DNA of 62,023 bases, filler included. It is 14 parts of 14 records of this genome, joined end to end, with 100 filler letters (N's around TTAATTAATTAA, not from the genome) between each part and the next. Parts side by side here need not be neighbours in the genome. Positions count along the whole stretch, not along the records: positions 18,751 to 25,180 come from SRR15195285_8567; 13 more parts are not named here. One strand, 5' to 3'. Positions 1-40,466 of the stretch are shown one piece after another. Under the pieces are notes generated by a model. That model did no database searches. It worked only from the letters and a program-made list of their open reading frames with translations, and was not told where the DNA came from. Numbering within the stretch: position 1 is the stretch's first letter; each line of letters starts with the position of its first letter. The translations under genes and the position numbers were made by a program.

Positions 1-403
1 GCGCCAGACACTCTCTGAGAGTGTCTGGCGTCGTATACCAACCGTTACAGCCACTAGCATAGGGTGCGAGGGGCCGGGGCATACTCTTGAGGCCCGGATG
101 GGACAGCTACCAGCCGCTGGTAGCCACAGTAACCTTTGAATGCCGCGTGTTCGATCCCCAAAAAAGCGTTGCACAAATGTCGCAATACGCGAAATCCACT
201 ACCTGGGCACTGTTTTAGACACCACCCCGCTTATCGAGAGGCTAACTGTGTCTGGCAGTCAGCCCGGCGCGGCGCGCCACCATGCAGGCGACAGGGGAGA
301 GCACGGAAAGGACGGGTCAACTGGTGCGTGTCGGGGGGACACGGCTGGCTGGCTGCGCGGGCGGGCCAGGGACCGCTTGAGCCGCCAGCAGCCCCTTGAC
401 AGC

Positions 404-14223: not shown

Positions 14224-14550
14224 GTGCACCACCGCTCTGACCACCTCGAGTCGCTGCGTTTTGTTGCGCATTGCTACTGCTGAAATTGGTGTTGTTTTCA
14301 CTCCGCGAGTGTTGAATTTCTGACCCACTATCCTGTATCCTCAAATCCGGTGACTGCAACAGTCGCTCAGTCGTTGGGAGTACTAAAGTATCACTGATAA
14401 ATACCGTGCACCCCTCTAATCACCTCGAATTCCTGCTTTTTCTCGCGGATTACCCGTTAAACTAGCATTGTTATGACTCTCCGCTGAGGATTGAATTTCT
14501 GACCCAGATTCTGAGATATATCCGGTGTTGCACTGCAACAGTCGCTGTGG
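14224..14550. repeat. Diverged tandem repeat, period about 180 bp (about 2 units)
   Basis: TTGAATTTCTGACCCA at 14312 and 14491; ACTGCAACAGTCGCT at 14353 and 14532; GTGCACC..CACCTCGA at 14224 and 14406. Confidence 0.75.
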
Positions 14551-14818
14551 CAATTTTCGCCTTACAATTTCGTTGTCATTTTCCTTCAAAAACCTCGTTT
14601 TGTATCTGAGATATGTACGAGATTGTAACAGGCGCGGTTCGACTGTTGCACCGGTGCTTTTTGAGCTGCAGGCGCTGGGGCTGAAGGCGCTGAAGCTGAA
14701 GGCGCTGGGGGCCGTGGTGCCCTTGGGGGGCATTGGGGGCATCCTCGGCAGCGCGGGAGGAGGGTTTGGCTCCCCGTCCCTCCCCTGCCTGGGGGAGAGG
14801 GGAGGGGGAGGGGGGGAG

Positions 14819-17800
14819 ATGGCGGATGTGGAGCCGGCGCAGGCGCTGAAGGACCGCGTTGCGGGGGAGCTGAAGGACTACGAGCGCGGCAGGGAGCTGT
14901 ACGCGAACCGGAAGTTCTTCGAGTATGAGCAGGCGACGACGAACGAGAAGAAGATCCTCGGGATGGTCGGGCAGTCCGAGCGCAAGGCGACGATCCCGCG
15001 CGCGGGGGAGTGGGTCGTGCAGGCGCCGCTCAAGGTCAAGGCCGGCCGGAAGTGGAACACCTCGCAGTCGCTCTCGGGCCTGGCGGACAGCCTGGACGGA
15101 AGCCAGTCGGGACCTGGCGGCAAGTCGACGCGGAGGAGGAGCAGGCAGCCGAGGCCCTTCCCGACGAGCGCGTCCGGCGCCACCGAGCTGCCCATGGAGG
15201 CGAGCGCGTCGTTCGGCGACATGGACCAGGAGTTCAGCCAGGTGGACTTCCAGGACGGCGGCGGGCGGGCGTCCGTCGCCGGTGCCGGCGACATCTCGCG
15301 GCTGCAGGCGGACAACGTGCTGCAGCGACGCTCCGCAAGCGCCACTCCGGCCCCCGTGCCGCTGTCGATGCCGGGCGAGAAAGGCCTGACGACGATGCTG
15401 CTTGATCCGCAGGAGGACCAGGTGTTCGCAACCACCTCGCTGCGCGACATCAGCAAGTCGCGCCGGCGCACGACGTCGGTCGCGAACTCAAAGATGGGCG
15501 CTGCACCAGTGCCGACGGAGGCGTTCTCCCGCCTGGCGTCCGACATGACGCGCATGGATGCCCTCGGGCAGGACGTGGACACGGAGGCCAGTCGTGTGTT
15601 CGACGGCTCGCAGCTAGACCTCGGCCCGCCGCCGCTCGACACTACGATCCATGACCCGAACGCCGTCAAGTCGCCGGTGCGCCGGATGATCAAGCGCGTG
15701 CAAGAGTCCGTCACCGACACCCCGTCGTTCTTTCCCCTCGGAAAGTTCGAGGACAGCGACCTGGAGTTCGTGGACGTCGCACAGATGATGGCGGAGGCAA
15801 GGGAGAAGCTGGAGGACGGGCAGACGCTCGCGGACGCGCTGGCCAACGACGGGCCGTCAACGGAGGTCGCGCCGCGCGCGCGGTCGCGCTGGTTCCTGTC
15901 AGACGGGAGCTGGACATGGGAACCTTGCTTCATCATCGATTGGAACGAGGCGAAGAACGAGTTCACGATCGAGTGGCACCCGGGCGTCGGGGACAAGGGC
16001 GGCAAGGGCAGGACAAAAGTAGTCTCACGGCTGAATCTTCTGCTTGACGGCGAAGACCCGCACCACATGGAGAGACGGCGTGATGTCGCGGCAGCCAATC
16101 GGCTTGAGGAGGAGCAGCGGCTGCGCTATCGCACCCGGCTGAAGTCAATGCCCCACCAGCTGGAGGCGTCGGAGCGACAGATGGGGATTATCAGCAAACT
16201 CATCGGCGAGCGCGTGCGTCGGCCCGACTACCTGTTTGAGCAGCTCACGCAAGAAGTGCAGGACGATTATTCCTACGTAGTGAACAAGCAGTGCTTTGAC
16301 GCTGAACTCCCGTTCACTGAGGCAGCTGCGGAGCTCCCAGCCCACGAAGTCGCGGAGAAAGTTGTGCCGGAGAAAGGGACCATCAAGGCACCCTGGCACG
16401 ACTTCAAAGGCAGGCTCGGCCAGATTGTCGCTACCCACCCTGCGGCAAATCCGCTCCTGCTCGATTCGACGCAGGCAGTCTTGAAAGAGATGGAGGATCT
16501 GAAAGAGCAGCTCATCTTGTCTGTCCCATCCACGCCTCTGGAGCTGGCTGATTTTGCGGAGATGCAGATTGACGTGCGAGCTGAGCTGATCTCTGATTGG
16601 AACAACAACTTGTTCAAGCGATTGGAGGATGCTGTACTCAACGCCTACAGCTCCGAAGGCACAGAGGACCTCGAGGACGAAGAGCAGGTAGAGGTCAAGA
16701 ACAACTACCTGCGCTTCATGACGATGATGAACATCTGGTATCGCGACTCGCTGCGGTTCCTGGCGACTGACTCTCTCGACAAGTACGCCGAGATGTTTCG
16801 GCGCCACATGGATGATTTTGAAGGCGATCCACTGGGACCTCGCGTAGAGTACAAGACCAACCTCGCGTTGTTCACACGCGGGCCCACACCTGCGGAGCTC
16901 CTCGACATGAAAGTCGCGCTCGCCCAAGCGACCGAGGTGTACAAACCATACGCCGAAGCTGATGCTAAGAAGGCTGCGCAGCAGAAGGGTAGCGACGACG
17001 AAGACGATGATGAGGAGGAAGAAGTCGACGAGGAAGAGCTAGCGGCAAAGAACGCTGCAGCAGAGGCGCTCGCGCTGGCGGAAAAGACACTGGCAGAGGC
17101 TGAAGCGAGCCTCGAAGCAGGCGTGCAATTCGTTCCGTCGCTGGAGGATTTCGCAGCTGAGGTCTGCTCCGGCCCTGTCAAGATTGTTGACACAGCGAGC
17201 AGCGCGAAATATGTGTCCATTCCTGTGTTCATGAGCGAGGGCCGCACGCTCGACCCGATTGGATCTGAGGAAGCGGTTGTTGTAAGCACCGTCGGCACCC
17301 TAGAGTCGGTGATGGCCGAGCTCAACAGCGAGCTCGATATAATTTCGGAGAAGTTTGAGCCCTATCTTGACCTCGTCACCATGGAGCCTGAGGTGCACGT
17401 CGAAGCCTTCTTAGCGACCAACCCAACAACAGAAGGTATCCATACTGAGCTTCAACGACTGTATGACTTGACACACGGCGTCGAGAGTGCCCTCGAAGAC
17501 TTCGAGCGGTTCCGAATGTACACGGTCAAATGCGATACAGTCAAGAAGACGTGCGCTGCCCGGGCACGGCTGGCTACTAAATTGTTGCTCGAAAAGCTCC
17601 GAGGAGCGATGGATGAAGCCAATGCAGACATCCGTCAGCGAACTACTGTGATCAAGGAGACTACCGAGCAGGTGTCAGACAAATGCGAGGAGACTTTTGA
17701 GCTCGAAACATACTCGAAAAAGATCGAGGGTGAGCTGGAAAGCCTCCAAGAGGAGATCGATGCTAGCCAGAAACAGATGGAGACACTGGTTCACTTCCAA

Positions 17801-18650
17801 TATGAGCTGAGTGACCTAGAGCTTACGGACTTCTGGACAACCGTAGGCTGCCCGGCCGACATCACCGGCATGCTCGAGGCAGCTGCTGGCCGCATCGCTG
17901 ATGAGAAGCGAGCATTCCTCGAACAGCTCGAGAAGGATAAGGCGAAGCTGGTTGAAGACATGGATGGCTATGGCGAGCAGATCGAGGCATTCGAGAAGTG
18001 TGGGCCAGAAAGTGATGTGGACGAGGTTGCTGATCGCATCACTGGCCTGCAGGACCTGATGACCGAGTGCAAGCACAGGATCGAGGTGATTAACTCGCGA
18101 GAAGAGTTATACGGCGAGGACCCTACCGACTATTCTGGGACTCTAGAGATGAATGTCGACCAGCTAGAACCGCACGCACTGCTCTGGCTCGCCTGCAGCC
18201 GATTTCGGGGTCAGCTTCCGCTGTGGCTGGATGGGCCGTTCAAAAACGTCAACGGCATGGAAGTGGAAGACAGTGTGGTTGAATGGATCAAGGAGCTCAA
18301 TAAGCAGGCGAAGGGTTCGTTTTCTGAGCTGGAGGAACCGATGAAGGTCCTCAATAATCTCAAAGAAGAGATGGTGGGGTTCAAGAAGAATTTGCCCATC
18401 ATCAACTCACTACGCAACCCAGGTTTGCGCCTGCGCCACTGGAAGTTTCTCGAGGAGAACTTGCCCTTGCCCACACTTGTGCAACAGGAGGGCGATGGTG
18501 CCCTGACACTGGCGTGGCTACTTGAGCAAGGGTTGACCGAAGATCCGAAGAAAATGGAGATCATCAACGACGAGAGTGAGAAGGCCACGAAGGAGTTCAA
18601 ACTTGAGCAGCAACTCACTCAAATGACAAAAATCACAAAAATCACAAAAA
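14819..18650 (+). CDS. DNAH1: Axonemal inner-arm dynein heavy chain, N-terminal tail (DNAH1-like), 3'-truncated
   Basis: DHC_N2-type motif LPIINSLRNPGLRLRHWK and SEKATKEFKLEQQL. FPLGKFEDSDLE, WEPCFIIDW and SRLNLLLDGEDP resemble the DNAH1 N-terminus. Likely start ATG 14819. Orthologue assignment is tentative. Confidence 0.85.
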
Positions 18651-19559
18651 NNNNNNNNNNNNNNNNNNNNNNNNNNNNNNNNNNNNNNNNNNNNTTAATT
18701 AATTAANNNNNNNNNNNNNNNNNNNNNNNNNNNNNNNNNNNNNNNNNNNNTCTGACTCTGGCTCTGGCTCTGGCTCTGGCATGATTAAATAGCCAGGATC
18801 AGAGCCAGCGCCTCAAATAGCCTCACAAGTGGCGCCACTTTTCAGCTCTCTGTGGCGTTGAAATCACTACGTACTGTGGCATTATCAGTAGTCACTCGCT
18901 GCAGCCCCACGGCCGCCGAAGAACGACGTAGGCAGACGCGACGCGCCGGCGTGGACGAAACTCGAGAAGCTCATCGAAGAAGCTACAGCTGTAGCGAACT
19001 AGGGGCGCCATCCTGTGGGCGCCTCGTCCGAGACGGCATTTCTCGGTCGTGCGCGCGCGCTCGCGCGCGGTCTATTCGAATATGTATAGCTATATATGAA
19101 TAGGACGCCGGACCCCGCGGCCGGGATACGATGACCGCGGTATGCAGAGTCCACGGGCAAACTGCGCACTCATGCCCTGCACTCATTCGTAAATTCGCAT
19201 TTAAGCGGCGGCCCTGATACTGTATGAATGGACAGCGCGCGAGACTCGTCATCAAGCTGCAGAATGAGCAGGCACGAGGCAGGAATCAGGAGACGTGCGA
19301 CAGACCAGCGAGACCTGCGACTTACTACTACTAGTAGATTAGTAGGCGTAATAATTTTACGAGGCGTGAACCGGCGACGTCTCGCCGCCGGCCGCGTACG
19401 TGGCCGCCGGCACCGACCGCGCGCGCGCGCATCGCGCAAGACGCGCCGGACGCCCGGCGCGGCAAGGTCACAGCAGTGGCACGAGAACAGCGACGGACGG
19501 GGACGCTCCCTCGCTCGGCTCTCGCTAGCGTGCAACAACAGTCGCTAATCCGGAGCAGT

Positions 19560-21692
19560 ATGGGAGCGAACAGCGTGTACAGCGAGTCCAGCGCGAAGGC
19601 AGGGTCTTTTACCGGCGCCGAGCTGCAGTCAGGTCGACATGGTGCTGTCGACCAGAGCAATGATGACAGTCTCGCGGAAGTAGAGGCTCAGCCGTCGAGA
19701 CACACCGAACGCTCCACCGGCTGTGGGCCGGCGCGGCAGAAGAAGCCCTCGCTGCAGCATCTCACTGCATCGCTTTCAGCCTTGTCGCTGAGCAGTTACG
19801 CTTTGGCGCTGAGAGCAAGTGCTCTGCACTTGCAGGGTCGCGACGAGGAGATCGACTCCGTACAGCTACTTGATGTGCTCGCCTCTACCACCGACACGGC
19901 GAAGCTGCTCGCCTCCTGCTGCCACCTGCTTCGGCAGGCAGGACGCAAAGGAGGCATGAGCAGAGAGAAGGTCGAAAATTTGCTCATTCCGCTCGGGTTC
20001 ACAAATGACCATATCCAGGTGCTGATCGAAGTGCTCGAGTGGGTGCGCAATGGATCTCCGGTTGATGCGCCGACGAAGTGCAAATCGTCCCCACCTGCTT
20101 CACTGCCGCCTGCTTCACCGACGGAGACTCCCACTACAGAAGAAACTGAAGTACCGTTGCTGGTCGCCGCCAAATGCTGCGAAGCTGAGCCACCGACCAG
20201 TCCAGACGCTGGCTCTACAGATCCCTGCCTGCAGCAGCAGATTCCAGCCGAGCCGGAAGAAGCGATCACACCACGGTCGCAAGCAGCCCTAGCCTCCAGA
20301 TATCTTGGTCGTTTGAGTCAGGTTGCAGAAGAGGCCGCACGAATTCAGGTCTTGGCGATGGATTACGATGCAAAAGCCGCCAAAATTCAGAGCCTGATCA
20401 GTGGGAAATGGGGCATGATGAATTGGAAGGATCGTCTGGACTTTCTGCACTCCTGCCCACAGGTGGAGCAAGCCACTGTAGCAGCACAGCGACGCACTAA
20501 GCTTTGCGCGAGGTTGCAGACAGGACCACCTCTCAATGCTTACTTGGTTGTAACGGCTTTCAACGGCAGCGTCCTCAAGCCACCCGCATGGCGAGAAGAC
20601 GAAGATCTGAGCCTCGATATTGGCGACATCGTTGTTTCCGTGGGATGCGCCCCATACGGCAACGGGTTCAAGAAGGGTTGGAGCGTCGGGTTCAAGGTGG
20701 GCAGCTGGAAGAGGCTCTCGACAGATTGGAACGCTAGTTGCATTGCCCCTAATGACGTGAAGATCTTCCCGAGCTGCGAAAAATATGTGCGGCGGCTGTG
20801 CAGTGACGACGTCGCCGAGCTGCCAGACCAGGTTCTCGATGCGCTCAGCAATTTCGACGAGAAATCAATGGATCCAACCCTCGGCTACAGTGCCGTGCCA
20901 CGCGTTAGTGTTGATGCCGTGGAGGTTACTGGGGCTGTGTGCCGCGCCTCTACATCTGTAGATACACTCGGTCGGCAGACCCAGAAAACAACTGCGTATT
21001 ACTCTGTACACTGCGTAGGGCCGGCAGGAGAATCGTGGACTGTACAGCGTCGATACTCTGAGTTTGAAAAGCTGCGCAACGACGTGCTCCAAAGCACGAC
21101 GATAGACAGTAACATTGCTGAGCTTTCCCGAGAAGATTTTGCCACCCTGAGCTTCCCAACCAAGCATTCAGCATTGCCTGGGAAGAAGCTGCGCGAGGCT
21201 CGGGTCCACGGATTCAATGACTGGCTTACCAGTGTACACGCCGCCACGTCTAAGGTCAAGCGCACTTCTAACGCGTACATTCTACTCCGTAGATTTCTAC
21301 GTCCAGATGCGCCCCTGAAACAGCGTTTCACGGGCTTCGAGCACAATGGGCAACGCTTTCCACAGCTGAATCTACTGGTGTATCCTGACACAGATGCGAA
21401 AGCGACCGCCGAGTACGTCGCAACGAAAGTTGGTATCCGAGCGATCTCCACCTTCGCGGGGCAGCTCTCCAAATTCATCACGGCGAACGGACGCTTAAGA
21501 TTGGAGGTCGATCATTTGGTGCCAGCCGGGCTAGGTGTCCAATATGTAATGATCCTGCCGAGCGACGGCTCTGCGCGGGCAGCTGTAAACAGATTCGCGA
21601 TGAGAGTGAAAGAAGAGTTCGAATTTGAGATCAGCGACAGCTGCCAGAGAGATATTGTTGACGAGGTCAAGCAGCGTATGCGTCGAGTCTGA
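19560..21692 (+). CDS. SH3- and PX-domain protein with N-terminal COMMD-like helical region
   Basis: PX: YYSVHC..WTVQRRYSEFEKLR..FPTK..R..GFNDWL. Divergent SH3: YLVVTAF..EDLSLDIGDIV..GWSVG..IFPS..YV. Single long ORF. Confidence 0.8.
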   Translation: MGANSVYSESSAKAGSFTGAELQSGRHGAVDQSNDDSLAEVEAQPSRHTERSTGCGPARQKKPSLQHLTASLSALSLSSYALALRASALHLQGRDEEIDSVQLLDVLASTTDTAKLLASCCHLLRQAGRKGGMSREKVENLLIPLGFTNDHIQVLIEVLEWVRNGSPVDAPTKCKSSPPASLPPASPTETPTTEETEVPLLVAAKCCEAEPPTSPDAGSTDPCLQQQIPAEPEEAITPRSQAALASRYLGRLSQVAEEAARIQVLAMDYDAKAAKIQSLISGKWGMMNWKDRLDFLHSCPQVEQATVAAQRRTKLCARLQTGPPLNAYLVVTAFNGSVLKPPAWREDEDLSLDIGDIVVSVGCAPYGNGFKKGWSVGFKVGSWKRLSTDWNASCIAPNDVKIFPSCEKYVRRLCSDDVAELPDQVLDALSNFDEKSMDPTLGYSAVPRVSVDAVEVTGAVCRASTSVDTLGRQTQKTTAYYSVHCVGPAGESWTVQRRYSEFEKLRNDVLQSTTIDSNIAELSREDFATLSFPTKHSALPGKKLREARVHGFNDWLTSVHAATSKVKRTSNAYILLRRFLRPDAPLKQRFTGFEHNGQRFPQLNLLVYPDTDAKATAEYVATKVGIRAISTFAGQLSKFITANGRLRLEVDHLVPAGLGVQYVMILPSDGSARAAVNRFAMRVKEEFEFEISDSCQRDIVDEVKQRMRRV

Positions 21693-21843
21693 GTGCGTTA
21701 TACAGAGAGTTTGTGAGTGAGCATGTGCGCTCTACTACCAGATTGTTGCGTTGGTAGTAGTGTAAACATGGAAGTTCAAGACTGAACAGCACAGCTACCA
21801 CAGTGTGTAGAGTCACTACAGCAACGGACTACATTGATTTGGT

Positions 21844-24800
21844 CTAGGTAGTAGTTTCGCTTCTGCTGAGCAAACCCTGTGTGATAAGGGCCTTGAGTTC
21901 CCTGATCTCAACACTCATAGAGTCGACTTTTGAGTTCAACTCCTGCACGTTTGCCTGTAGGCTGCGCGGTTGCTCCGTTCGCGACGGGACTCGCAACTTC
22001 TTCGCGCTCTTCACAGGGTCCATGAAAACCTGTAAACCGTTCCAAAATTCGTTGGCATCGATATCTCCACCTTTGTCCTTGTCAAAAGCAGATTTGATCA
22101 TATCCACGCGCTGCTCGTGGTGCAGCTCTGAATTCAGCGGCAGCACGTCGTGAAACTTGGCCAGATAATCCAGCACAGAGTCAGGAGTCAACCCCACCTG
22201 CTTTCGCGAGTCCGGTCCAGCACTTCTCTGTTGCTCTGCAAGCACGCTCTCATACGCCGCGGCAGCATCCCGCTCTGACAATGGAAAGCCTGCATGCTCC
22301 ATCATGCGACGCCGTTGGAGAGCATTTGGCTGCCCAGACAGAGAGTCCAGCAGCGCTACTTGAATGCGCAATGTCTTCTCCAACATCGGGTGCTTCGCGA
22401 ACAGTTTCTCTAGCCGATCCAGCGGTAAAAATGTCAACTGCAGCGGCTCAACACCCGTCACCTGCTTTGCGCGGACAGAAAACTTGATGTGCCGATCGGA
22501 CTTTCCGTCCCCAGTTTGCGTGCCACCAAGCGCTGCATGCAGTGCGAAGCAGTCCCCAACTCCGAGCTCTCCCTCAGTCCAGTTGAACTCTTCTTTGTCG
22601 TCCTCAGCCGGGATTTTCAAACAGCTTACCTGAGATGGATCCCTTTTCCATGGATCTGCCTCCACAAGCCCATTCCACGCTCCGTTTGCGTCCACGGTGT
22701 CGAACTCTCCAGCTACCAGGTCAGCTCGTTCCTTAGTCCAGTCTTGAAAATCGCCCGCGACAGTACTCGGTGTATACTGGCCGGTGGCCTTTTTCCACGC
22801 CACATATCCCTTCCACTTGCCGTTCGGGTTCCGTTCAGTTACAGCGATCAGATCGCCTTTGCTGAAACGTAGGTTTCCGGGGTGAGTTACTCTCCCGTCG
22901 CCCACCCCGCAATTTCTCTTCGCACGGACGTAGCACTCCCAGGTTGACTTGACACATCGTCCCGCAGTCACGACGTAAATTCCACGAATAATATCTCCCT
23001 CCCGAATAATCTCAGCACCGTCTGCAAATGACGTTTTGCCATTGTCATCGTGTGCTGGTTCCATCTGATTGTTCAGATCAAGCAGTATCTCGCCGTTGGC
23101 TGTCGGAAGCTCAGTAAGCCCGCCATCGATAGCAGCCTCAGCCCCCTCCTCGAAGACACGAAAGTACGAGCCGACCACGGCTGCTTTGGTATTGCCCAGC
23201 TGCTGAGGCTGGTAAATCTCTGTGAGCACCTTGCGACACATCACAGGGTCGATGATTCTCATGTAGTTTACAACTAGCTCTTCGTCCATCACGGCGTCAG
23301 AGTGCAGCAATACGTTCCCGAAGTGTCTCTTGATGTCAGTGCCGGTGGTCTCAATGTGTGAGACATTTTTGCGCTTCAAGTATGCCTCTATCTTCGGCAT
23401 CATTTCGTTGTATTTCTGTGTCTTAGGATCAAGCTTGCCATCGATGATATAACCACTCAGTGTTCCCATGGTGTAGCCGAAGGTGAAGACTCCTATTACC
23501 TGGAAAAAGGCGGTATACATTCGTTCCATCTCGTTGAGCGGCAGGATATCACCGTAGCCCACTGTGGAGAGTGTCGTCGTCGCAAAATAAAGCGCAGCAC
23601 CATACTTGGTCATGATGGTTGCATTCAAAAGCGTGTCGTCGTAGCCCTCGATCCAGGTGTGTGGTTCACCACTCTTCTGCATCTGGTCCGTCAGCGTATA
23701 CATCGGTAAATCTTGTGGGTCCGAAATTCTGTCGTGTTCTATGATCGCTACGTAGTGCCAGCCGCACGCTGTTAGATGAGCAAAGATCACTGTCATCACG
23801 CCAGCTTTGATCACGTCGAGACCATCAATATCTCGTAGACTGTCAGCGTTGCGCTGCAGTAGATTAGCAATCTTAGCTAGTTTCAGGACCTTCGCTAGCC
23901 TCACGAGCCGGAGCAGCCTCGCGAGTTTCGCGTCGCTCGCATTCTCCATGCCACCAGCTAGCAGTTGGAAATAGGTCACCGGTAGACAAGACAGCACGTC
24001 GTAGTAGAACCACCCAAACGATAAAAACCCAAACGGCCCCCACCTGTAAGTCCAGCTTCCCATGTAGCGTCTCCTAATCTCGGTTGCATCAACGACAAGC
24101 TTCATCGTCCCCTCGTCCTCGTAACACATGACGAAGTTCAGTACAATGTCTGAGATGAAAGAAATATCTGTAATGATGTCGCAGACCAGCCATGCGGTGG
24201 TCAACGGAAGGTCGAAACCAATTCGGAGCGGGATTGCCCCTGTAACCACCATGAGCAGGAGCAGAAGCCAAGCGTCCCAGTAACTCAAGCAGCCGCCTAC
24301 TGCCCCGGCTTTGAACAGCACATACTGCTCCGGATCGATCAGCCCTTTCGATGGCACGCGGTGCACCTGCTTGTCGTTGACTAGCGGCATATCATCGAAC
24401 TGGCAACATACTCTAACTCCGCAGCACCTCTGTTTGTTGCGCGGCATGCTATAGGCATTCGGTGGTGAGGTTCTCCGGCCGAAGAGTCCCAGGCGAGCTG
24501 CCGTGACGACGAAGCTGTTGCTTGTGACAACGACTCGTCGCGAAACATCCGCTGTGCGCGTCGTGAAGCCTGCGAGCGACCAGAGATCGTCGATCGTGCT
24601 ATTGTCTGCATCAAACTCTGATCGCATCATGGTGGAGAACTGCTCGTAAGACATGTTCCCATCGTGGTCATCGTTGTCGTACTTGAAGAACATCGCGCGC
24701 GCCTTCGCGATGTCCGACTGCTCCAGCAGGCTCGCCTTCGTCGCTCCGCGCTGCAGAGCGCCGAGCGCCCGCCCCGACGCGGAGGGCCGGGAGTGATGCA

Positions 24801-24990
24801 TCCCGCCGCCGAGAGACTCCTGCCCCTCCGTCATGGGCCGTGCGCCATCACCATCGCTCCCCTTTAGCAGTCCGGTCACCTCTCCTGATCCTGGCTGGGA
24901 TACGCTGACGCTACTAGTATATGCCGTCACTGCACCTGGCAGTAGCTCCGGATCGTCCTTCGGCATCTGGTACGCCTCCGACGAGCCCAT
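21844..24990 (-). CDS. Voltage-gated CNBD-family (KCNH/HCN/CNG-like) K+ channel with EF-hands and an SH3 insertion
   Basis: S4 ARLLRLVRLAKVLKL; pore TTLSTVGYGD (about 23548-23565); C-linker; CNBD strands IIREGD..IYVVTAG and GDCF..SVRA; EF-like loops YDNDDHDGNMSYEQF and FDKDKGGDIDANEF; C-terminal coiled coil. Confidence 0.9.
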   Translation of the reverse strand: MGSSEAYQMPKDDPELLPGAVTAYTSSVSVSQPGSGEVTGLLKGSDGDGARPMTEGQESLGGGMHHSRPSASGRALGALQRGATKASLLEQSDIAKARAMFFKYDNDDHDGNMSYEQFSTMMRSEFDADNSTIDDLWSLAGFTTRTADVSRRVVVTSNSFVVTAARLGLFGRRTSPPNAYSMPRNKQRCCGVRVCCQFDDMPLVNDKQVHRVPSKGLIDPEQYVLFKAGAVGGCLSYWDAWLLLLLMVVTGAIPLRIGFDLPLTTAWLVCDIITDISFISDIVLNFVMCYEDEGTMKLVVDATEIRRRYMGSWTYRWGPFGFLSFGWFYYDVLSCLPVTYFQLLAGGMENASDAKLARLLRLVRLAKVLKLAKIANLLQRNADSLRDIDGLDVIKAGVMTVIFAHLTACGWHYVAIIEHDRISDPQDLPMYTLTDQMQKSGEPHTWIEGYDDTLLNATIMTKYGAALYFATTTLSTVGYGDILPLNEMERMYTAFFQVIGVFTFGYTMGTLSGYIIDGKLDPKTQKYNEMMPKIEAYLKRKNVSHIETTGTDIKRHFGNVLLHSDAVMDEELVVNYMRIIDPVMCRKVLTEIYQPQQLGNTKAAVVGSYFRVFEEGAEAAIDGGLTELPTANGEILLDLNNQMEPAHDDNGKTSFADGAEIIREGDIIRGIYVVTAGRCVKSTWECYVRAKRNCGVGDGRVTHPGNLRFSKGDLIAVTERNPNGKWKGYVAWKKATGQYTPSTVAGDFQDWTKERADLVAGEFDTVDANGAWNGLVEADPWKRDPSQVSCLKIPAEDDKEEFNWTEGELGVGDCFALHAALGGTQTGDGKSDRHIKFSVRAKQVTGVEPLQLTFLPLDRLEKLFAKHPMLEKTLRIQVALLDSLSGQPNALQRRRMMEHAGFPLSERDAAAAYESVLAEQQRSAGPDSRKQVGLTPDSVLDYLAKFHDVLPLNSELHHEQRVDMIKSAFDKDKGGDIDANEFWNGLQVFMDPVKSAKKLRVPSRTEQPRSLQANVQELNSKVDSMSVEIRELKALITQGLLSRSETTT

Positions 24991-25622
24991 AGGAAAATTA
25001 AATCAACGACAGAAGAGACCCACTGTATCCACTGTATCCACTATACCCACCACCCTCGCAGCGCTCAAGCCACCTAATCAAAAAGCCACCGCGTCACGTG
25101 CTAGTATCTTCCCTCCATTGTCGCTTTCCAGTTGACCCGTCCCGTCCTCGCTGCGGCGCCACACCACAGTGTATGAGACANNNNNNNNNNNNNNNNNNNN
25201 NNNNNNNNNNNNNNNNNNNNNNNNTTAATTAATTAANNNNNNNNNNNNNNNNNNNNNNNNNNNNNNNNNNNNNNNNNNNNCGCGCGGTGCATGGGCGACT
25301 CGCGCACGCTACGCTCGCGCGCGCGCGGGCGCAAGATCCGCGCGCGTCCGTCGTCGCGACGGCGGCGCCGGCGGGGGTCGTGACGCCGGGTCAGGCAGTA
25401 CGGTGGCTCGGGAGGCTACCTCTGACTCCGTCAGGCTCTCAGTCTCTTCCTCTATAGACGGTAGTACGCCGCTGGTGTGTGCAGGAGTGCAGGGGCCGAC
25501 AGAAGTGGGGCTGCACAGTCGCGCTGGAGTGGCTTGTAGCGCTCCCTACTGTGCGCGCGATCGCGGTGCAGCGTGTTTACGATCGAGAAAGAGTGCGAAC
25601 CGTGAGACCGTCGCAGGAAGTG

Positions 25623-26795: not shown

Positions 26796-28256
26796 TCAGA
26801 TCCATAGCCGTGGCGACCGGTGGACGAGATTGGCGATAGTGTGTTGCAAGTCGCCGCACAGTGCCCGCAACGGTGACACAGATCGGCCTTGCCCGCGCAA
26901 TCTTGTGCCAGCGGCAAAAGCCAGCAACTGGAACGCACACTGGATCCTTCGACCAGCCGGGACAAAAGGCACGAGCGGCACGCACAAGCGGCGCTCTACC
27001 ATCAACCAATCTGGCTGCTGGGCTGCTGAACGTTTTGCGTTCACGTCAACTGGTTCACCGATACCTCCTCCCACCCCCTGTTCAGCATTGCAATCCGTAC
27101 CCAGTGTTTTCGTCAGGTCTAGCACGAGGTCCCACGACACTACCCCAGAGACTGCCCGAGCTAGGAGCCGCAACCTTGCACACTCGAAAGCCAAATAGTC
27201 GGCAACGTCAGTGTAGCGCTCTCCCTCTGCTGCCTCTTCGGCGGTCAACCCAGTCGTACGACATTTTGCACTTAGCACCGCCTCCCGCTCGGAAGCAAGG
27301 GGAAACATTCGTCGTGCTTGATCAACCACAAGCTGCACAACAGCCAAGTGTCCGCCTGCGTGCAATGAATTGTAGCGCACAGGTATGTTCAATGCATCTC
27401 TACAGCAAAGAAGAAGCAGTCAGGCACGAATGCAGAGGCCCAGGAGCGTACGGCGCGCAGCTGCATATAATGGAGTTTGGTCATCGATATTCGCTGTGAA
27501 CACAGTGTGCAACGCCAGCGTCGCGAGCCGTCGTGCCACAATGTAGTGGCCATAGAAAGCCGCCCCAAAAAATGCCGTCTCGTCGTCGCAAGTCGTGGCA
27601 GCTGGATCCGCCGTTGCAACACCCATATCTCGTAGCTGCTGTTCGTCCAGCAAAAACTCTACGACCCCATCATGGCCGCGGCAAGCCGCAGCAATGAGTG
27701 GCGACCAACCACGCTTTGTGACGGCTGCAATATCCTTTGGCGATAGCAAGCCAGCAAGATAGTGGACGATCTGCAACTTGCCGTGATCGCAAGCAGTAAA
27801 AAAGCAAGTCTGCCCTTCGTTAGTGCAGGAGACAATATCTGCGCGCTGCTCCTCGACAAGGTACCTGACCACGTCTTCGTGGCCCGACATGCAAGCAAGA
27901 AATACCGGTCGCGCTCCGTAGCGGTCACCAATTTCGATGTCTACTTCGTCGCTACTTGGGCCTTCGCATAGAAATCGCACAGCTGAGAGGTGGCCTTGGC
28001 ATGCTGCTGCGCAGACGGGTGTCATGCCGAGCTGGCTGGGCTGCGCGACGTCTGCCCAGCCTCGATCCACAAGGAATCGTGCCACAGCGACGTTGCCATG
28101 CATGCACGCGGAATACAATAGTGTGCGCCCGGCCTCATCAACTACTCTCAGTTGACTTTTACTCGGCTGACCGTCTCCCGCATGGGCCAGAAGCAGCTGC
28201 TGCATCTCCTCGATGCTACCGCTGGCCGCAGCAGCGAACACGTCCGTGGTCCACAT
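26796..28256 (-). CDS. Ankyrin-repeat protein; 2 exons (28256-27452, 27355-26796)
   Basis: About 8 ANK repeats (GRTLLYSACMHGNVAVARFLV, GMTPVCAAACQGHLSAVRFL...). Intron 27356-27451 joins TPLYAAAR|RGHLAVVQLV. Confidence 0.88.
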
Positions 28257-28851
28257 GCAGCTGCCGCCAGTACGGGCAGCAGCTGATTTAAACGTAACCG
28301 CGGCCTGGATCGCTTCTGTCGCTACCCGTGGCTTCGGATGAACAGGCGGGAGCGTCAGTTGCGGGAAGCGGAGGCAACGACGGCTCTCATGCAGCGCGTT
28401 CCGTCGTCTTCCGATTCCGCGTTGCCGTGATGTGCACCCCGCGCCCTCTGCCGATGATGGTGCCGGGCCACACCGGACTTTTACTATCGAAATAATGACG
28501 CTAAGGTCCACTCGTGCANNNNNNNNNNNNNNNNNNNNNNNNNNNNNNNNNNNNNNNNNNNNTTAATTAATTAANNNNNNNNNNNNNNNNNNNNNNNNNN
28601 NNNNNNNNNNNNNNNNNNGGGCCCAAAATTCTGCGGGGGGGGGGACCCCGACCCACCGTACATCTGTACGTGTTATCGGCTACCCGCGCGATGCCCCAGG
28701 GCCGGCGGCGGAGCCGTCGCGCGACCCGCGGCCAGTCGCCTCGCTCGCCGCCGAGTGCGTGGTTGCCTTCGGCTCGAGGGAGCGCTGATCACGGGCGGGG
28801 TATGTCGACAGTACCATTCATAGTGTCACGGGTTGGCTCAATTGGGTGGCA

Positions 28852-37946: not shown

Positions 37947-39809
37947 TTAACTGTTCTCTCCAGCTATACTCTTGCGCGTGCTGTCCTGAAGCTGGGGCAT
38001 CGCGTCCAACGCCGCCTCAAATGGTCGCCACTCAACCATTCCAGCGCACCAGAGCAGCTGCCCTGCACCTGGCACGAACCCGCCGCTCCGCAGTAGGCGC
38101 AGCAGGTCTGCAGCAGAGACTGGGCCTCGGCGGGTCTGCCCGACGCTCGAGCCTTCAGCCATACCGCTCGAGAACTCATCCTGTTGACAGCACGCAGAAC
38201 CAAGAGCATTATTGCGACGTTTGCAGCTAGGCTAATAACGGCAGAGCGCGAGGACAAATCTGCAATGTCCACAACACACACTCACCTCAACGTTTTCCGT
38301 GTAGTATATCACTGCCGCGCGCTCACGTTCGCGGTCGCTCGAGGTGCCACTCACAATGCCTGTGTCCAGTAGATTGTCCGCACTGGTGTGATCCACTGTA
38401 TCGGCAGCAGCTGCAGCTGCGAGGTACGACCCGAGAAGCCGAAGGTCCCGTGCGAGCAGCTCCGCCTCAGTGGGGAGCACTGCCTCGAGTAGCAATGTGA
38501 CTGGCCGATGATCGGACACCTCGAACGATGGTTCCATGCGGGCGTCATAGTGCCGACCGCGTATTCGCCGATCCGAGGATGACGCGACGCCAGACGCACC
38601 ATCGTCGACGTCGCATTGGCCACGCTTAGCGCGGAATAGAATTCTGTCTGTCCAACTAGGCGTTCTAGCTTTGGGCGGCGCAATATCATACTCTGTACTG
38701 CCTGGCTGAAACTTGTATGTTGGAGGGAATCTGATCGCTTCCTCAACCCAGCCGGCGCAGGCAGGGTCGCCGGTCGTGCGCGCGACGTGCAGCTGGTCGT
38801 GCTGCAGCAACCCAGCTATTGTGTCTTCCATGCCGCCCGTCACGTCCCCAGTTGCTTCATGCTCTTGCCGTTGTTGCAGCGCTGCATCGTGCAGCGCACG
38901 CGCAGTCTCTTCTGGAGGAAGGTCCAGCCGGTAGTTCAGGTCGCCAAAGAAAGCGGCGATATCGGCTTTGCGAGTAGCCGCTTCCTCTACCGCAAGTGCT
39001 GGCGATTGTTGTCTCGCACCGCCTCCAATGGCCGATTCAAATGCCAGGCTCTTCTCAATGTGCCTCCAATCTGACTCACGCCGACTCGCCGCAGTCTGCC
39101 CAGCTGCGAGATGCGCCGCAACGAGCACCACTGACGTCCCGTGCATCATCATCCGCACGCCGCACGCTCCCTTGTTGCCTGTCTCCGGCAAGCCAAGGCC
39201 GCGCATCTCCTCTCCAAGGGCCCGAGCGCCGGCGATGAGACCGCCAAGCCTGCTGCCCGGACCCATGACTTTCTCCACGCCATTGGCAAAACCATCCACC
39301 CCTGAAGATAACCCGGCGCCGCAGCCGACAGTCGCAGGAACAACCTCTCTTACGTATTGGAAACGATCTGAGCGCACAAAGACTGCGAGGAAGACGCCCA
39401 CCATTTGCTGAATGCACACCTCTCGATATCCTAGCCCACCTGCGGCTGAGGCAAGCTTCTGCGCCCACGCTTCGCCGGTCGCGGTTTCGATTTTCCGCAG
39501 TTTGTTGACAGCCGCTGCCTCGGCCGACAGTTCGCGGACCTGGGTGCTCACGCGCTCGAGCACGTTCGCCCCAAAAGCCTCTGCGGACATCTCAATCTCT
39601 TGGAGTCCGACTGCCACCAGCTCCGGGGCATTGCTGCTCAATCCTACGCCTTCGGGACGATCTTCCGCCGGCTGCAACAGCGACGACAGGCTGGCCGAGG
39701 TCAGGGTCGCCACATCGCACTCGCCGACGTTCCAGGTGACGACCCGGATACGCAAGCTCGGTGCGTCCGCCGACGGTTTGAGCTCGGGCTCGGGCTCGGG
39801 CTCGGGCTC
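37947..39809 (-). CDS. Inositol polyphosphate 5-phosphatase with C-terminal GYF_2-like domain, 5'-truncated; intron 38181-38285
   Basis: VTWNV, VGLQE, GNKGACG, AHLAAG, FFGDLNYR, FPPTYKF, PSWTDRIL, SDHRPV. The spliced tail reads IYY..RGPVS..L..LLRSG..LLWCAGMVEWRP. Confidence 0.9.
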
Positions 39810-40466
39810 NNNNNNNNNNNNNNNNNNNNNNNNNNNNNNNNNNNNNNNNNNNNTTAATTAATTAANNNNNNNNNNNNNNNNNNNNNNNNNNNNNNNNNNN
39901 NNNNNNNNNTGGGTATGCTAGCATAGTAGGGGTGGGCCAGCCCACAGCGCGCCCCCAGCCCATGCTACCCCATCTCACCTTGCAGCCTCCGTCTTGGCCT
40001 CGAAGGGTGTGGCACACGGGGCCCACTCGGTGCAGCGGTTGGTTGCCCGTTGCTAGATACTATTCAATCCTGACTGATTCTGATCGATCAGAAGTGAGGC
40101 GCATACGAAATGAAAATGTTGAGGTGCTCGTGACTGAAAAAATGACTAGAAACACAAACAGTTCAGTCAGAGAGACAATTCAGGAATCCCAACATTCAAG
40201 CGTCGGAGTTCATACCAATAGCTAGGGGCAGGCCTAATCATGTAGATCTATAATAGCCGCATCGTGATAGCCGGGCCGGGCAGCTGATATGTTATGAGGA
40301 ATGTGCAGTTGACTGACTGACTGAGTGACTGACCATGGCAGCGATGATGACGGCGCTGGTGATGATGGCGGCGCTCTACAGCAGCGACAACTAGCCGATA
40401 CCCACACACACCCACCCGATACGCGATAGGGAGAGCCACCACACGGCCGGCCCGATCCAACGCTCG

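Follow-up and report, generated by a model that had tools for sequence, protein, structure and literature searches.

Does the stretch at positions 22380-23035 of the window, by which we mean the whole 62,023-nt DNA sequence analyzed here, encode a potassium channel whose cyclic-nucleotide-binding domain (CNBD) is interrupted by an SH3 domain, and what would such a channel respond to? A preliminary description, made from the letters alone, had proposed this architecture together with EF-hands at both ends of the protein, and had suggested gating by Ca2+ and proline-rich ligands. With a probability of about 0.55, we favor a K+ channel that is gated by voltage, independent of nucleotides, and probably modulated by Ca2+, and whose gating ring bears an atypical SH3 domain as a docking module.

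Gene model and transcripts

The locus was found to carry a single stop-to-stop open reading frame on the minus strand (21847..24990, with the stop codon at 21844-21846), which encodes a complete, uninterrupted protein of 1,048 aa, designated P0001; all features described below lie on the same strand. Positions 22380-23035 correspond to its residues ~653-871. A motif search recovered every string quoted in the preliminary description: FADGAEII (residues 655-662), GIYVVTAGRC (670-679), YVRAKRNC (687-694), NLRFSKGD (706-713), GKWKGY (724-729), GEFDTV (761-766), EFNWTEGELGVGDCF (801-815), SVRAK (838-842), and LFAKHP (863-868). The full-length homologues have 855-1069 aa, and the insert is conserved in all five distinct ones, with identities down to 53% over residues 545-900.

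Some of the gene's words were present in 20 RNA runs from 16 studies. The share was below 0.2 in 16 of these runs, which were left out, and the other four were aligned to the gene. The metatranscriptome contigs from the RNA libraries were colinear with the DNA across both borders of the insert, with no joints in the four aligned runs: X1 record 3 and X3 record 14 bridge the border at 22953, and X7 polyA record 19 bridges the one at 22576. These are assembled contigs with patchy cover, which may contain DNA, and no single one spans the whole insert. Gaps in the cover occur, for example, at 23182-23295.

Since RNA-library contigs run colinearly across both borders, the insert is not an intron, and the RNA-seq check proposed in the preliminary description thus came out in favor of a continuous coding sequence. 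We give next to no credence to the insert being an artefact, either an in-frame intron left unspliced or an assembly error in the concatenated scaffold. Such an artefact might be suspected from the artificial joining of short contigs that makes up the window, and from the DNA possibly present among the RNA-library contigs; yet the insert lies deep within a native 6.4-kb contig (18752-25180), encodes a recognizable domain, is crossed at both borders by contigs from three RNA libraries, and is kept by the five independent homologues, which come from different sources. Because the window joins separate contigs, only genomic context within 18752-25180 was used as evidence.

Channel core and N-terminus

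The S1-S6 voltage-sensor and pore module occupies residues 233-520 (23431..24294) and was recognized by the Pfam families Ion_trans (63.1 bits, cutoff 25) and Ion_trans_2 (44.4 bits, cutoff 22.5). The best sequence matches in the PDB were KCNH5, KCNH1, GORK, and HCN1, over residues 237-541 with E-values from 2e-17 to 1e-13. Both hallmarks named in the preliminary description, S4 and the TVGYGD filter, were located in the protein. S4 (residues 355-380, 23851-23928) has seven basic residues at every third position (K355, R358, R361, R364, K367, K370, and K373), and the K+ filter TVGYGD lies at residues 476-481 (23548-23565); the filter and the basic residues are invariant in the alignment of the homologues. 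By its sequence, P0001 is classed as a 6TM K+ channel of the CNBD clan, which includes KCNH, HCN, and plant Shaker channels, and it would be voltage-gated. Of the Pfam profiles searched against P0001 itself, Ion_trans passed its cutoff, and SH3_2, cNMP_binding, and EF-hand_6 remained below theirs.

Upstream of the core, residues 122-232 (24295..24627) form a conserved cytoplasmic domain of unassigned fold, in which 46 of 111 positions are invariant across five sequences. It has no Pfam family, and it contains a cysteine cluster, RCCGxxxCC, at residues 188-196. Its first part is shared with relatives that lack the insert. No PAS (eag) domain was detected among the Pfam matches at E<=10 or in the PDB with the profile of this domain.

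The EF-hand expected at the N-terminus, outside 22380-23035, lacked statistical support. Residues 88-121 (24628..24729) form a weak EF-hand-like helix-loop-helix with a degenerate loop, for which Pfam EF-hand_1 gave an E-value of 0.29 and the best profile match in the PDB, calmodulin, gave 0.28. The EF-loop pattern found no match here. P0004/P0005 have an indel in the loop, and the cluster of the 855-aa homologue P0006 lacks the segment. Residues 88-121 are thus probably not Ca2+-binding, as judged from these sequences.

The interrupted CNBD

The core is followed by a C-linker-like helical region (residues 521-640, 23071..23430), into which the PDB alignments to KCNH channels extend as far as residue 541. 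It was seen in a low-confidence model with helices at model positions 2-20, 30-37, 50-60, and 62-73 and pLDDT mostly below 50. The N-terminal half of the CNBD beta-roll, beta1-beta4, comprises residues 641-683 (22942..23070), where positions 3-28 of Pfam cNMP_binding matched residues 654-679 (E 0.075), strands were modeled at 670-676 and 678-683, and 58% of the positions are invariant. The C-terminal half, with beta5-beta8, a degenerate phosphate-binding cassette, and alphaB/alphaC, comprises residues 806-885 (22336..22575), as delimited by the alignment of insert-free relatives, structural alignment, and secondary structure. The insert of ~126 aa (residues 680-805) thus sits in the beta4-beta5 hairpin. 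No cytoplasmic part of the protein is better conserved than these two flanking halves, with 75-82% mean pairwise identity. P0001 scored 13.5 bits with cNMP_binding against a cutoff of 27.5, and it aligns to relatives that pass.

The split of the CNBD was borne out by the predicted structure. In an AlphaFold model of residues 521-1048 (mean pLDDT 59.7 and pTM 0.37, from a shallow alignment), whole CNBDs could be aligned across the insert, with model positions ~81-366 corresponding to residues 601-886 of the protein. All 50 listed structural matches were CNBD proteins (Z 11.5-13.0, 110-132 aligned residues), among them the MloK1 CNBD with 125 of its 131 residues aligned (Z 13.0, rmsd 3.2), GORK with 123 aligned residues (Z 12.8, rmsd 2.2), HCN1 (Z 12.5), and SKOR (Z 11.6). 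The best Foldseek matches, CNG, CAP, FNR, and HCN proteins, gave alignments of 280-455 columns for domains of ~200 residues, the best E-value of 5.6e-4 being weak. The model therefore predicts a CNBD fold that is complete despite being split in the beta4-beta5 hairpin. The two AlphaFold models used in this work were built on alignments of 12 and 6 rows.

As read from the motif alignment, the residues that normally hold the nucleotide were missing. As the preliminary description had noticed, the FGE motif is FAL in P0001, and it is FGL or FGA in the homologues (FAL/FGL/FGL/FGL/FGA over the five members). The phosphate-binding arginine before SVRA is likewise gone, its position in the alignment on SVRA being an invariant isoleucine in all five; H-I-[KRM]-F precedes SVRA in each of them, so that P0001 has HIKF in place of the canonical Arg-Thr. 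A variable loop adds to the length of the cassette, and K836 adjoins the position of the lost arginine. With the Glu and Arg/Thr contacts gone, the channel very probably does not use cAMP or cGMP for gating, which would liken it to KCNH and plant Shaker channels.

Some CNBDs bind ligands in noncanonical ways, and this domain might likewise still hold a small ligand, whether a cyclic nucleotide or something else, with the SH3 domain as a passive decoration of a tolerant loop. The retained beta-roll, the helix at the cassette position, alphaB/alphaC, and the high conservation of the flanking halves are compatible with this, as is the length of the beta4-beta5 hairpin, which differs among CNBDs, also in the alignments. 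We nevertheless regard it as very unlikely, given that the glutamate is replaced by L/A and the arginine by an invariant isoleucine in all five members, that a variable loop extends the cassette, and that the insert is itself constrained, with 35%-36% of the positions invariant over its two conserved parts.

The SH3 module

The insert consists of three parts. Residues 684-746 (22753..22941) form the SH3 core with strands a-d and a variable RT loop, supported by Pfam SH3_2, PDB matches, hhalign, and fold searches, and 35% of its positions are invariant. Residues 747-779 (22654..22752) form a conserved excursion with a helix at ~753-759 and a short strand, followed by the barrel-closing strand at ~776-779; this segment, defined by structural alignments, secondary structure, and conservation, is 36% invariant, including W751, W772, V776, and E777. 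The return linker to beta5 (residues 780-805, 22576..22653) is poorly conserved (15% invariant), with pLDDT below 50 in parts.

The preliminary description had read an SH3-like signature in the insert, and both profile and structure searches agreed with it. Pfam SH3_2 matched six of six family members at E<=0.005, although P0001 itself reached 19.9 bits, below the cutoff of 21.8 that its homologue P0006 passed with 25.4 bits. Profile-profile alignment by hhalign against canonical SH3 units gave a probability of 97.1%. An insert-only AlphaFold model was of moderate confidence (mean pLDDT 60.7, pTM 0.59, shallow alignment). All 43 Foldseek matches listed for it contain an SH3 domain (37 are titled SH3), the best E-value of 6e-3 being weak. 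An unbiased scan over 48,161 chains placed entries titled SH3 at 35 of the best 50 ranks (Z 5.4-7.0), and the top ones aligned as whole SH3 domains over 56-63 residues with an rmsd of 2.0-2.5 and Z 6-7, a common range for this tool. Fourteen of the other fifteen we take to be SH3-containing proteins or, in the case of MIA, an SH3-like fold. The remaining entry, 9pgz, could not be classified.

These alignments span residues ~4..100 of the insert model, with only the 56-63 residues aligned. In the model, the insert thus forms an SH3 barrel with a conserved excursion of ~30 aa ahead of the last strand, and the barrel which the preliminary description had hoped to see by AlphaFold was placed in the beta4-beta5 hairpin with moderate confidence. 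An interruption before the last strand is also known from split SH3 domains of the MAGUK type (PSD-95, ZO-1, PALS1, and the SH3-HOOK-GK unit of CaV-beta), and entries of this type were found among the structural matches (1kjw, 1jxo, 8e0e, 3lh5, 3shw, and 4wsi). The resemblance is topological and comes from a model of moderate confidence; unlike those proteins, P0001 has no guanylate-kinase domain, and its SH3 domain is itself nested in a domain of a channel alpha-subunit.

SH3 domains mostly bind proline-rich motifs, and such ligands had been proposed to gate this channel; the ligand groove argues otherwise. When the members were aligned with canonical SH3 units by MAFFT and hhalign, the tyrosine pair of ALYDY was found replaced by R/T/K/A/Q and C/H, the first tryptophan of the WW pair by K/R, the groove proline by T/Q, and the groove tyrosine by T/S/E in all five members, and the RT loop varied in length and sequence. 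The roles of these residues are partly confirmed by PMC7830187. The SH3 domains of Caskin were the second and third best PDB sequence matches (E 0.027 and 0.054), values that are not significant alone. Caskin-1/2 and the insert have in common a G-[KR]-W-K-G motif in strand c with a basic residue in place of the usual first tryptophan. According to PMC7830187, the Caskin SH3 domain lacks the conserved aromatic groove, has no peptide groove, and binds lysophosphatidic acid.

A conventional proline-peptide reader that gates the channel together with Ca2+ in place of cyclic nucleotides is consequently quite improbable in our judgment. Both the fold and the family signal of an SH3 domain are genuine, proline-rich motifs are the commonest SH3 targets, the second WW position keeps an aromatic residue (W/Y), and Y739 and P741 are invariant; these points are outweighed by the five replaced groove positions, the variable RT loop, and the likeness to a domain that is reported to have no peptide groove (PMC7830187). 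An intramolecular PxxP ligand was dropped as a candidate, as the motif search found no PxxP in P0001 or P0003. Given the replacement of the canonical groove residues, docking of an atypical kind is the most likely role of the SH3 domain. Lipid binding, by analogy with Caskin, would be pure conjecture.

EF-hand and C-terminal tail

The EF-hand at the C-terminus fared better than its N-terminal counterpart. Residues 936-1000 (21991..22185) matched calcineurin B in a phmmer search of the PDB (E 1.8e-5) and contain a canonical 12-residue EF loop, DKDKGGDIDANE, at residues 970-981 (22048-22083), which matches a PROSITE-type pattern. This pattern fits four of the five insert-bearing members and fails in P0005; loop position 5 is Gly. 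Pfam EF-hand_6 gave an E-value of 0.003 and 17.6 bits, below its cutoff of 25, and the model shows a helix-loop-helix with pLDDT ~70-82. As far as sequence can tell, this EF-hand is real, which makes a Ca2+ input plausible; it lies just after the CNBD and would probably confer Ca2+ sensitivity in cis. The protein ends in a long helix (residues 1011-1046, 21853..21960; a single helix at model positions 491-526, pLDDT ~73-77), which is poorly conserved and possibly a coiled coil.

Distribution and relatives

Residues 545-900 were matched by only 12 of 1.84 billion representatives. No description of a K+ channel with an SH3 domain nested in its CNBD was found in the literature searched, mostly without subscription journals or supplements, and literature on picozoan channels and on protist K+ channels with a cyclic-nucleotide-binding homology domain (CNBHD) and an EF-hand contained none of the P0001 architecture; its rarity, which the preliminary description had surmised, thus holds. 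The best ESM Atlas look-alikes of residues 640-885 reached 0.81-0.82, short of 0.9, and offer no more than a lead; every one was a small cNMP_binding cluster, and none combined SH3 with a CNBD. An exhaustive search pointed to no close donor of the SH3 domain, the best SH3 proteins outside the family reaching only E 2e-4 to 5e-4 (P0015-P0017). The insert-bearing clade is small, and its only named member is a Picozoa record; the source is a marine protist, probably a picozoan.

Three relatives without the insert, P0010, P0012, and P0011, place P0001 in its context. They share with it the N-domain, the tail with the EF-hand, the helix at the C-terminus, and an almost identical pore region, with 31%-35% identity over the C-terminal half, and they align on both flanks of the insert. 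Unlike P0001, they have a contiguous CNBD, keep FGE, and lack the SH3 insert, and they carry a weak RRM-like N-terminal extension (E 0.035-0.16). Their CNBDs pass Pfam cNMP_binding with 36.2, 31.8, and 33.6 bits against the cutoff of 27.5, and P0011 also matches the yeast PKA regulatory subunit (E 1.6e-6). Since the domain is contiguous and passes this profile in all three, the insert is derived. The cytoplasmic segments specific to the insert-bearing clade are the cysteine cluster and a longer loop before the CNBD.

Discussion

Under the favored reading, P0001 would be the subunit of a tetrameric, K+-selective channel with a voltage sensor, belonging to the clan of KCNH/EAG, HCN/CNG, and plant Shaker channels. 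Its gating ring would be built from a CNBHD that retained the fold and lost the glutamate and Arg/Thr which hold the nucleotide, and a module of ~126 aa would have entered the beta4-beta5 hairpin in one small clade. Located at the rim of that ring, the atypical SH3 domain might anchor or modulate the channel by binding a protein surface without PxxP or perhaps an acidic lipid.

The KCNH channels (EAG/ERG/ELK) are the closest by sequence (KCNH5, E 2e-17) and share with P0001 the 6TM core, the C-linker with a CNBHD without nucleotide contacts, and a possibly coiled-coil helix at the C-terminus. P0001 differs from them in the absence of the PAS/eag domain, the SH3 domain nested in the beta-roll, and a filter of the GYG rather than the GFG type. 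Calmodulin regulates EAG channels. Centrin 4 does so as well, according to PMC4821352. These EF-hand proteins act in trans, whereas the EF-hand of P0001 is built in and, by analogy, would probably confer Ca2+ sensitivity in cis.

The plant Shaker-type channels (GORK, SKOR, AKT1, and KAT1; E ~1e-13) belong to the same clan and have a K+ filter of the TVGYGD type, and the CNBHDs of GORK and SKOR are among the best structural matches to P0001. They lack the SH3 insert and the EF-hand, and P0001 in turn has no ankyrin repeats or KHA domain detectable by Pfam. The CNBD fold of HCN, CNG, MloK1, and SthK aligns almost fully with that of P0001. These channels keep the glutamate of FGE and the Arg-Thr of the phosphate-binding cassette, in contrast to the P0001 family, which has L/A and Ile-Lys at these positions.

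The SH3 domain could alternatively work in cis, packing on the channel's own N-domain, its EF-hand tail, or the gating-ring domain of a neighboring subunit. It would then clamp the N- to the C-terminal region, or one subunit to the next, much as PAS touches the CNBHD in KCNH channels, and would recruit no external partner. N-terminal domains touch the C-linker or CNBD in several channels of the clan, and a second conserved surface is suggested by the invariant excursion residues W751, T752, E754, G761, F763, and W772; the two clade-specific cytoplasmic segments would also fit. Against this, the packing between domains is unreliable in a monomer model with pTM 0.37, and the N-domain and EF tail also occur in the insert-free relatives and hence did not arise with the insert. 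A complex prediction of residues 641-885 with residues 88-232, run with no alignment or controls and with a partner of uncertain fold, scored 0.00 and counts neither for nor against the clamp. We consider the clamp unlikely, if the least unlikely of the alternatives to a docking module.

A bolder version of the docking module, which we hold to be quite unlikely, is that the nested SH3 domain stepped in for the lost nucleotide in the allosteric control of the gating ring, with the adjacent EF-hand setting the Ca2+ dependence in cis. A partner bound at the beta4-beta5 hairpin would then move the beta-roll, alphaC, and the C-linker and shift voltage gating; candidate partners would be the N-terminus of the channel itself, an acidic lipid, or a protein of the cytoskeleton or flagellum. 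If true, P0001 would be gated by a protein or coupled mechanically, a form of regulation for which no precedent is known in the CNBD clan.

The channels of this clan (HCN, CNG, EAG/hERG, and plant Shaker) are a central model for the coupling between a ligand-binding domain in the cytoplasm and a pore, and a foreign interaction module within a nucleotide-blind beta-roll, beside a built-in EF-hand, offers a natural experiment on the tolerance of the gating ring and on alternative inputs to it. For the present its value is modest, given the small clade and the still conjectural function of the insert. The locus also adds a lineage-specific signaling protein for Picozoa-like protists, which are largely uncultured and for which we know of no channel physiology. 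As the gene is intronless and only 3.1 kb long, it would be easy to synthesize and record.

Channel gene and contig

The channel gene lies in one stop-to-stop open reading frame (ORF) at 21844..25002 on the minus strand, and its 1048-aa product from the first Met, P0001, is coded at 21847..24990 (-). The region 22380-23035, where the preliminary description placed a K+ channel with an SH3 domain inside a cyclic-nucleotide-binding domain (CNBD), corresponds to residues ~653-871, and all sequence strings quoted there were found in P0001 at the expected positions. A linker of TTAATTAATTAA between N-runs occurred in 13 copies, with 0 expected by chance (3736, 9546, 14146, 18695, 25225, 28563, 32012, 35404, 39854, 43719, 47105, 53804, and 58047); both sites inspected (2 of the 13) were flanked by N-runs. 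The window thus looks like a join of ~14 short contigs, and gene neighbourhood across the linker points is therefore artificial.

Two linkers bound the channel gene's native contig, 18752-25180, and gene context beyond this contig was not treated as evidence. It carries only two genes, the second being the sole true neighbour, a convergent 784-aa stop-to-stop ORF at 19338-21692 (+) with a PX domain (23.6 bits, slightly above the cutoff). The stop codons are 154 bases apart, with RNA-library contigs covering 21700-21829 in the gap. Other contigs carry an ORF with a dynein heavy chain start at 14495-18650 (+) (DHC_N2, 89 bits), which is truncated at 18651, where the contig gives way to a linker, and not by a stop within the gene, an ankyrin-repeat protein at 27420-28562 (-) (Ank_2, 147.9 bits), and an Exo_endo_phos2-family protein at 38232-39857 (-) (171 bits).

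Channel core

P0001 matched Pfam Ion_trans (63.1 bits) and Ion_trans_2 (44.4 bits), and the best sequence matches of residues 237-541 among solved structures were KCNH5, KCNH1, GORK, HCN1, and SKOR (E 2e-17 to ~4e-13). Judged by sequence, P0001 is a member of the CNBD clan of voltage-gated-like channels. The TVGYGD filter (residues 476-481) and S4 (residues 355-380; seven K/R, one every third position) were both invariant across homologues, and P0001 is almost certainly a K+ channel. A Cys cluster, RCCGxxxCC, lies ~40 residues N-terminal to S1 (residues 188-196; 24403-24429 (-)); it was conserved in 5/5 insert-bearing homologues and missing from insert-free relatives, and membrane anchoring of the palmitoylation type is a conjectured role for it.

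An SH3-like insert in the CNBD

A word-indexed search with residues 545-900 yielded 5197 candidates, of which five reached E<=0.001 (identity: P0002 100%, P0003 89%, P0004 72%, P0005 66%, and P0006 53%). When the same 356 residues were run exhaustively with HMMER against 1.84 billion representatives, just 12 proteins reached E<=0.001: P0004, the representative with the insert; four family fragments covering part of the insert (P0014), the downstream part (P0007, P0009), or the upstream part (P0008); the insert-free relatives P0010, P0011, and P0012; P0013, a fragment stopping before the insert site; and P0015-P0017, which are ordinary proteins with several SH3 domains (E 2e-4 to 5e-4).

Pfam cNMP_binding matched only 26 residues of P0001 (654-679, to profile positions 3-28) with a non-significant E of 0.075. 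The insert-free relatives passed the cutoff of 27.5 bits with 36.2, 31.8, and 33.6 bits; P0012 covers profile positions 2-88 of 89, and P0011 matched the yeast PKA regulatory subunit (E 1.6e-6) as well as HCN CNBDs. These relatives aligned with P0001 on either side of a ~125-column gap (alignment A2), with GIYVIERGEC against GIYVVTAGRC in P0001 before it and LLRQGDCFGE against ELGVGDCFAL after it. The PKA alignment places the gap between the two strands in 'G.vdVskkGqgvinkL', which CNBD topology identifies as the beta4-beta5 hairpin.

Residues 521-1048 were modelled with AlphaFold2 from 12 alignment rows (mean pLDDT 59.7, pTM 0.37), and the model aligned structurally with whole CNBDs across the insert over model range 81-366, which is residues 601-886. 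All 50 rows listed were CNBD proteins (Z 11.5-13.0 over 110-132 residues), including MloK1 (125/131 residues) and GORK (123 residues, rmsd 2.2). Foldseek also gave CNBDs, with weak E-values (best 5.6e-4). The CNBD is thus split by the insert, as had been proposed.

The insert itself, also as proposed, resembles SH3. Pfam SH3_2 matched 6/6 family members, with P0006 above (25.4) and P0001 below (19.9) the cutoff of 21.8 bits, and hhalign of a five-insert profile with canonical SH3 units (P0015/P0016) gave a probability of 97.1% over 38 columns. A phmmer search of the PDB with residues 545-900 ranked SH3 proteins first (nephrocystin, Caskin-2, Caskin-1, Grb2, CrkL, and beta-PIX), non-significantly (E 0.026-0.5). 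With an insert-only model (residues 680-805; 6 rows, pLDDT 60.7, pTM 0.59), all 43 Foldseek rows listed (E 6e-3 to 5.6e-2) contained SH3, and 37 named it in their titles. In a Foldseek-independent scan of 48,161 chains, 35 of the best 50 rows had SH3 in the title; of the other 15, 14 are SH3-containing proteins or, for MIA, an SH3-like fold, with 9pgz unclassified. The top rows were whole SH3 domains (56-63 residues aligned, rmsd 2.0-2.5) at Z 6-7, a range that the tool rates as common, so the weight rests on the uniform match list and the sequence signal. We put the probability that the insert has an SH3 fold at about 0.9.

The SH3 alignments span insert-model positions ~4..100 for just ~60 aligned residues, and the matches include MAGUK/CaV-beta-type split SH3 domains; in the model, the last barrel strand (~776-779) hence seems to come after a ~30-residue excursion. 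This comprises a helix (~753-759) and a short strand, with many invariant residues.

Coding status of the insert

The insert was retained in 5/5 distinct full-length homologues. Invariant positions made up 35-36% of its SH3 core and excursion and 15% of the return linker; the CNBD halves on either side reached 54-58%. RNA-library contigs from four studies were compared with 21700-25100; they are assembled contigs of patchy cover, none spanning the whole insert, from libraries that can contain DNA. The border at 22953 was crossed by X1 record 3 (22664-23012) and X3 record 14 (22889-23047), and that at 22576 by record 19 (22462-22769) of the polyA run X7. None of these contigs showed a joint, indel, or loose end over 21700-25100. 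The in-frame intron considered in the preliminary description, or an artefact, was rejected, since the insert is conserved and contigs run colinearly across both borders.

Groove and ligands

Pro-rich ligands had been suggested for the insert, which would make it a conventional PxxP reader. When its groove was aligned with canonical SH3 units, the second position of the WW pair remained W/Y, and the RT loop varied in length among members. The first Trp was replaced by K/R, the ALYDY tyrosine positions by R/T/K/A/Q and C/H, and the groove Pro and Tyr by T/Q and T/S/E. The insert also has the G-[KR]-W-K-G motif in common with Caskin SH3 domains, which, according to PMC7830187, have no conserved aromatic groove and bind lysophosphatidic acid instead. 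No PxxP motif was found in P0001. Because of the substitutions, the Caskin likeness, and the missing PxxP, a conventional Pro-rich ligand appears unlikely, and a PxxP reader is improbable. The insert SH3 is instead taken to be an atypical docking surface, which more likely than not works through non-PxxP contacts with protein or lipid; its partner may be external or belong to the channel itself.

Nucleotide pocket

The Glu of FGE, the phosphate-binding Arg, and the following Thr/Ser are the canonical nucleotide-contact residues. Aligned on the invariant SVRA, the five members have L/L/L/L/A, Ile in 5/5, and K/K/K/R/M at these positions, confirming the reported loss of FGE and the Arg, and the cassette has an additional loop of variable length. 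Given these replacements and the lengthened cassette, the domain is read as a nucleotide-blind CNB-homology domain (CNBHD), as likewise found in KCNH and plant Shaker channels, and gating by cNMP is judged quite unlikely. In KCNH channels, an 'intrinsic ligand' fills the nucleotide pocket. About 15 residues beyond the alphaC helix, P0001 has an invariant AGFP motif (residues 900-903; 22282-22293 (-)), which is present as GFP or FP in insert-free relatives; by analogy, it is conjectured to be a candidate 'intrinsic ligand' for the empty pocket.

EF-hands and C-terminal helix

EF-hands had been claimed at both ends, of which the C-terminal one held. This region matched calcineurin B EF-hands (E 1.8e-5) and modelled as helix-loop-helix (pLDDT ~70-82), and the loop DKDKGGDIDANE (residues 970-981) fits the EF-loop pattern in 4/5 members. 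Pfam EF-hand_6 was below cutoff, and Gly occupies the fifth position of the loop. On sequence, it is moderately favoured that residues 970-981 bind Ca2+. The N-terminal candidate failed the Pfam, profile-versus-PDB, and EF-loop pattern tests, and its segment is absent from the P0006 cluster (855 aa; 13/15 listed members 854-868 aa). P0001 ends in a long modelled helix (residues 1011-1046), which may be a tetramerising coiled coil.

Proposed mechanism and novelty

We propose that P0001 would act as a voltage-gated K+ channel with a nucleotide-blind gating ring, modulated by Ca2+ via a cis EF-hand directly after the CNBHD. EAG channels bind calmodulin in trans at the corresponding position. In EAG channels, the EF-hand protein is thus supplied in trans, whereas that of P0001 would be in cis. 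Binding of centrin 4 to Eag1 has also been reported (PMC4821352). Four atypical SH3 modules on the gating-ring rim could serve anchoring or partner recruitment.

The kind of protein is known; the combination of a cis EF-hand with an SH3 nested inside the beta-roll appears new, as far as checked. The nested-SH3 architecture was restricted to one small clade among the 1.84 billion representatives, and no description of such a K+ channel was found in the literature searched; the architecture may nevertheless occur independently elsewhere.

Source lineage and sequence variants

P0003, the sole family member with an organism name, is from Picozoa sp. COSAG02 according to its source. Since P0001 is 87% identical to it overall, the DNA of the window, judging from this one gene, probably belongs to a picozoan or a closely related organism. 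The insert-free P0010 (residues ~74-125) and P0012 (residues ~158-201) have N-terminal extensions with weak RRM_1 matches (E 0.16 and 0.035); if genuine, an RRM-like domain would be an unusual feature of a K+ channel. At 22294, the window has A and contigs from X1, X2, and X3 read C (X7 is without cover), which changes His899 to Gln on the minus strand. Because Gln is also found in P0002 and P0003, the A at 22294 is a minor variant or an error.
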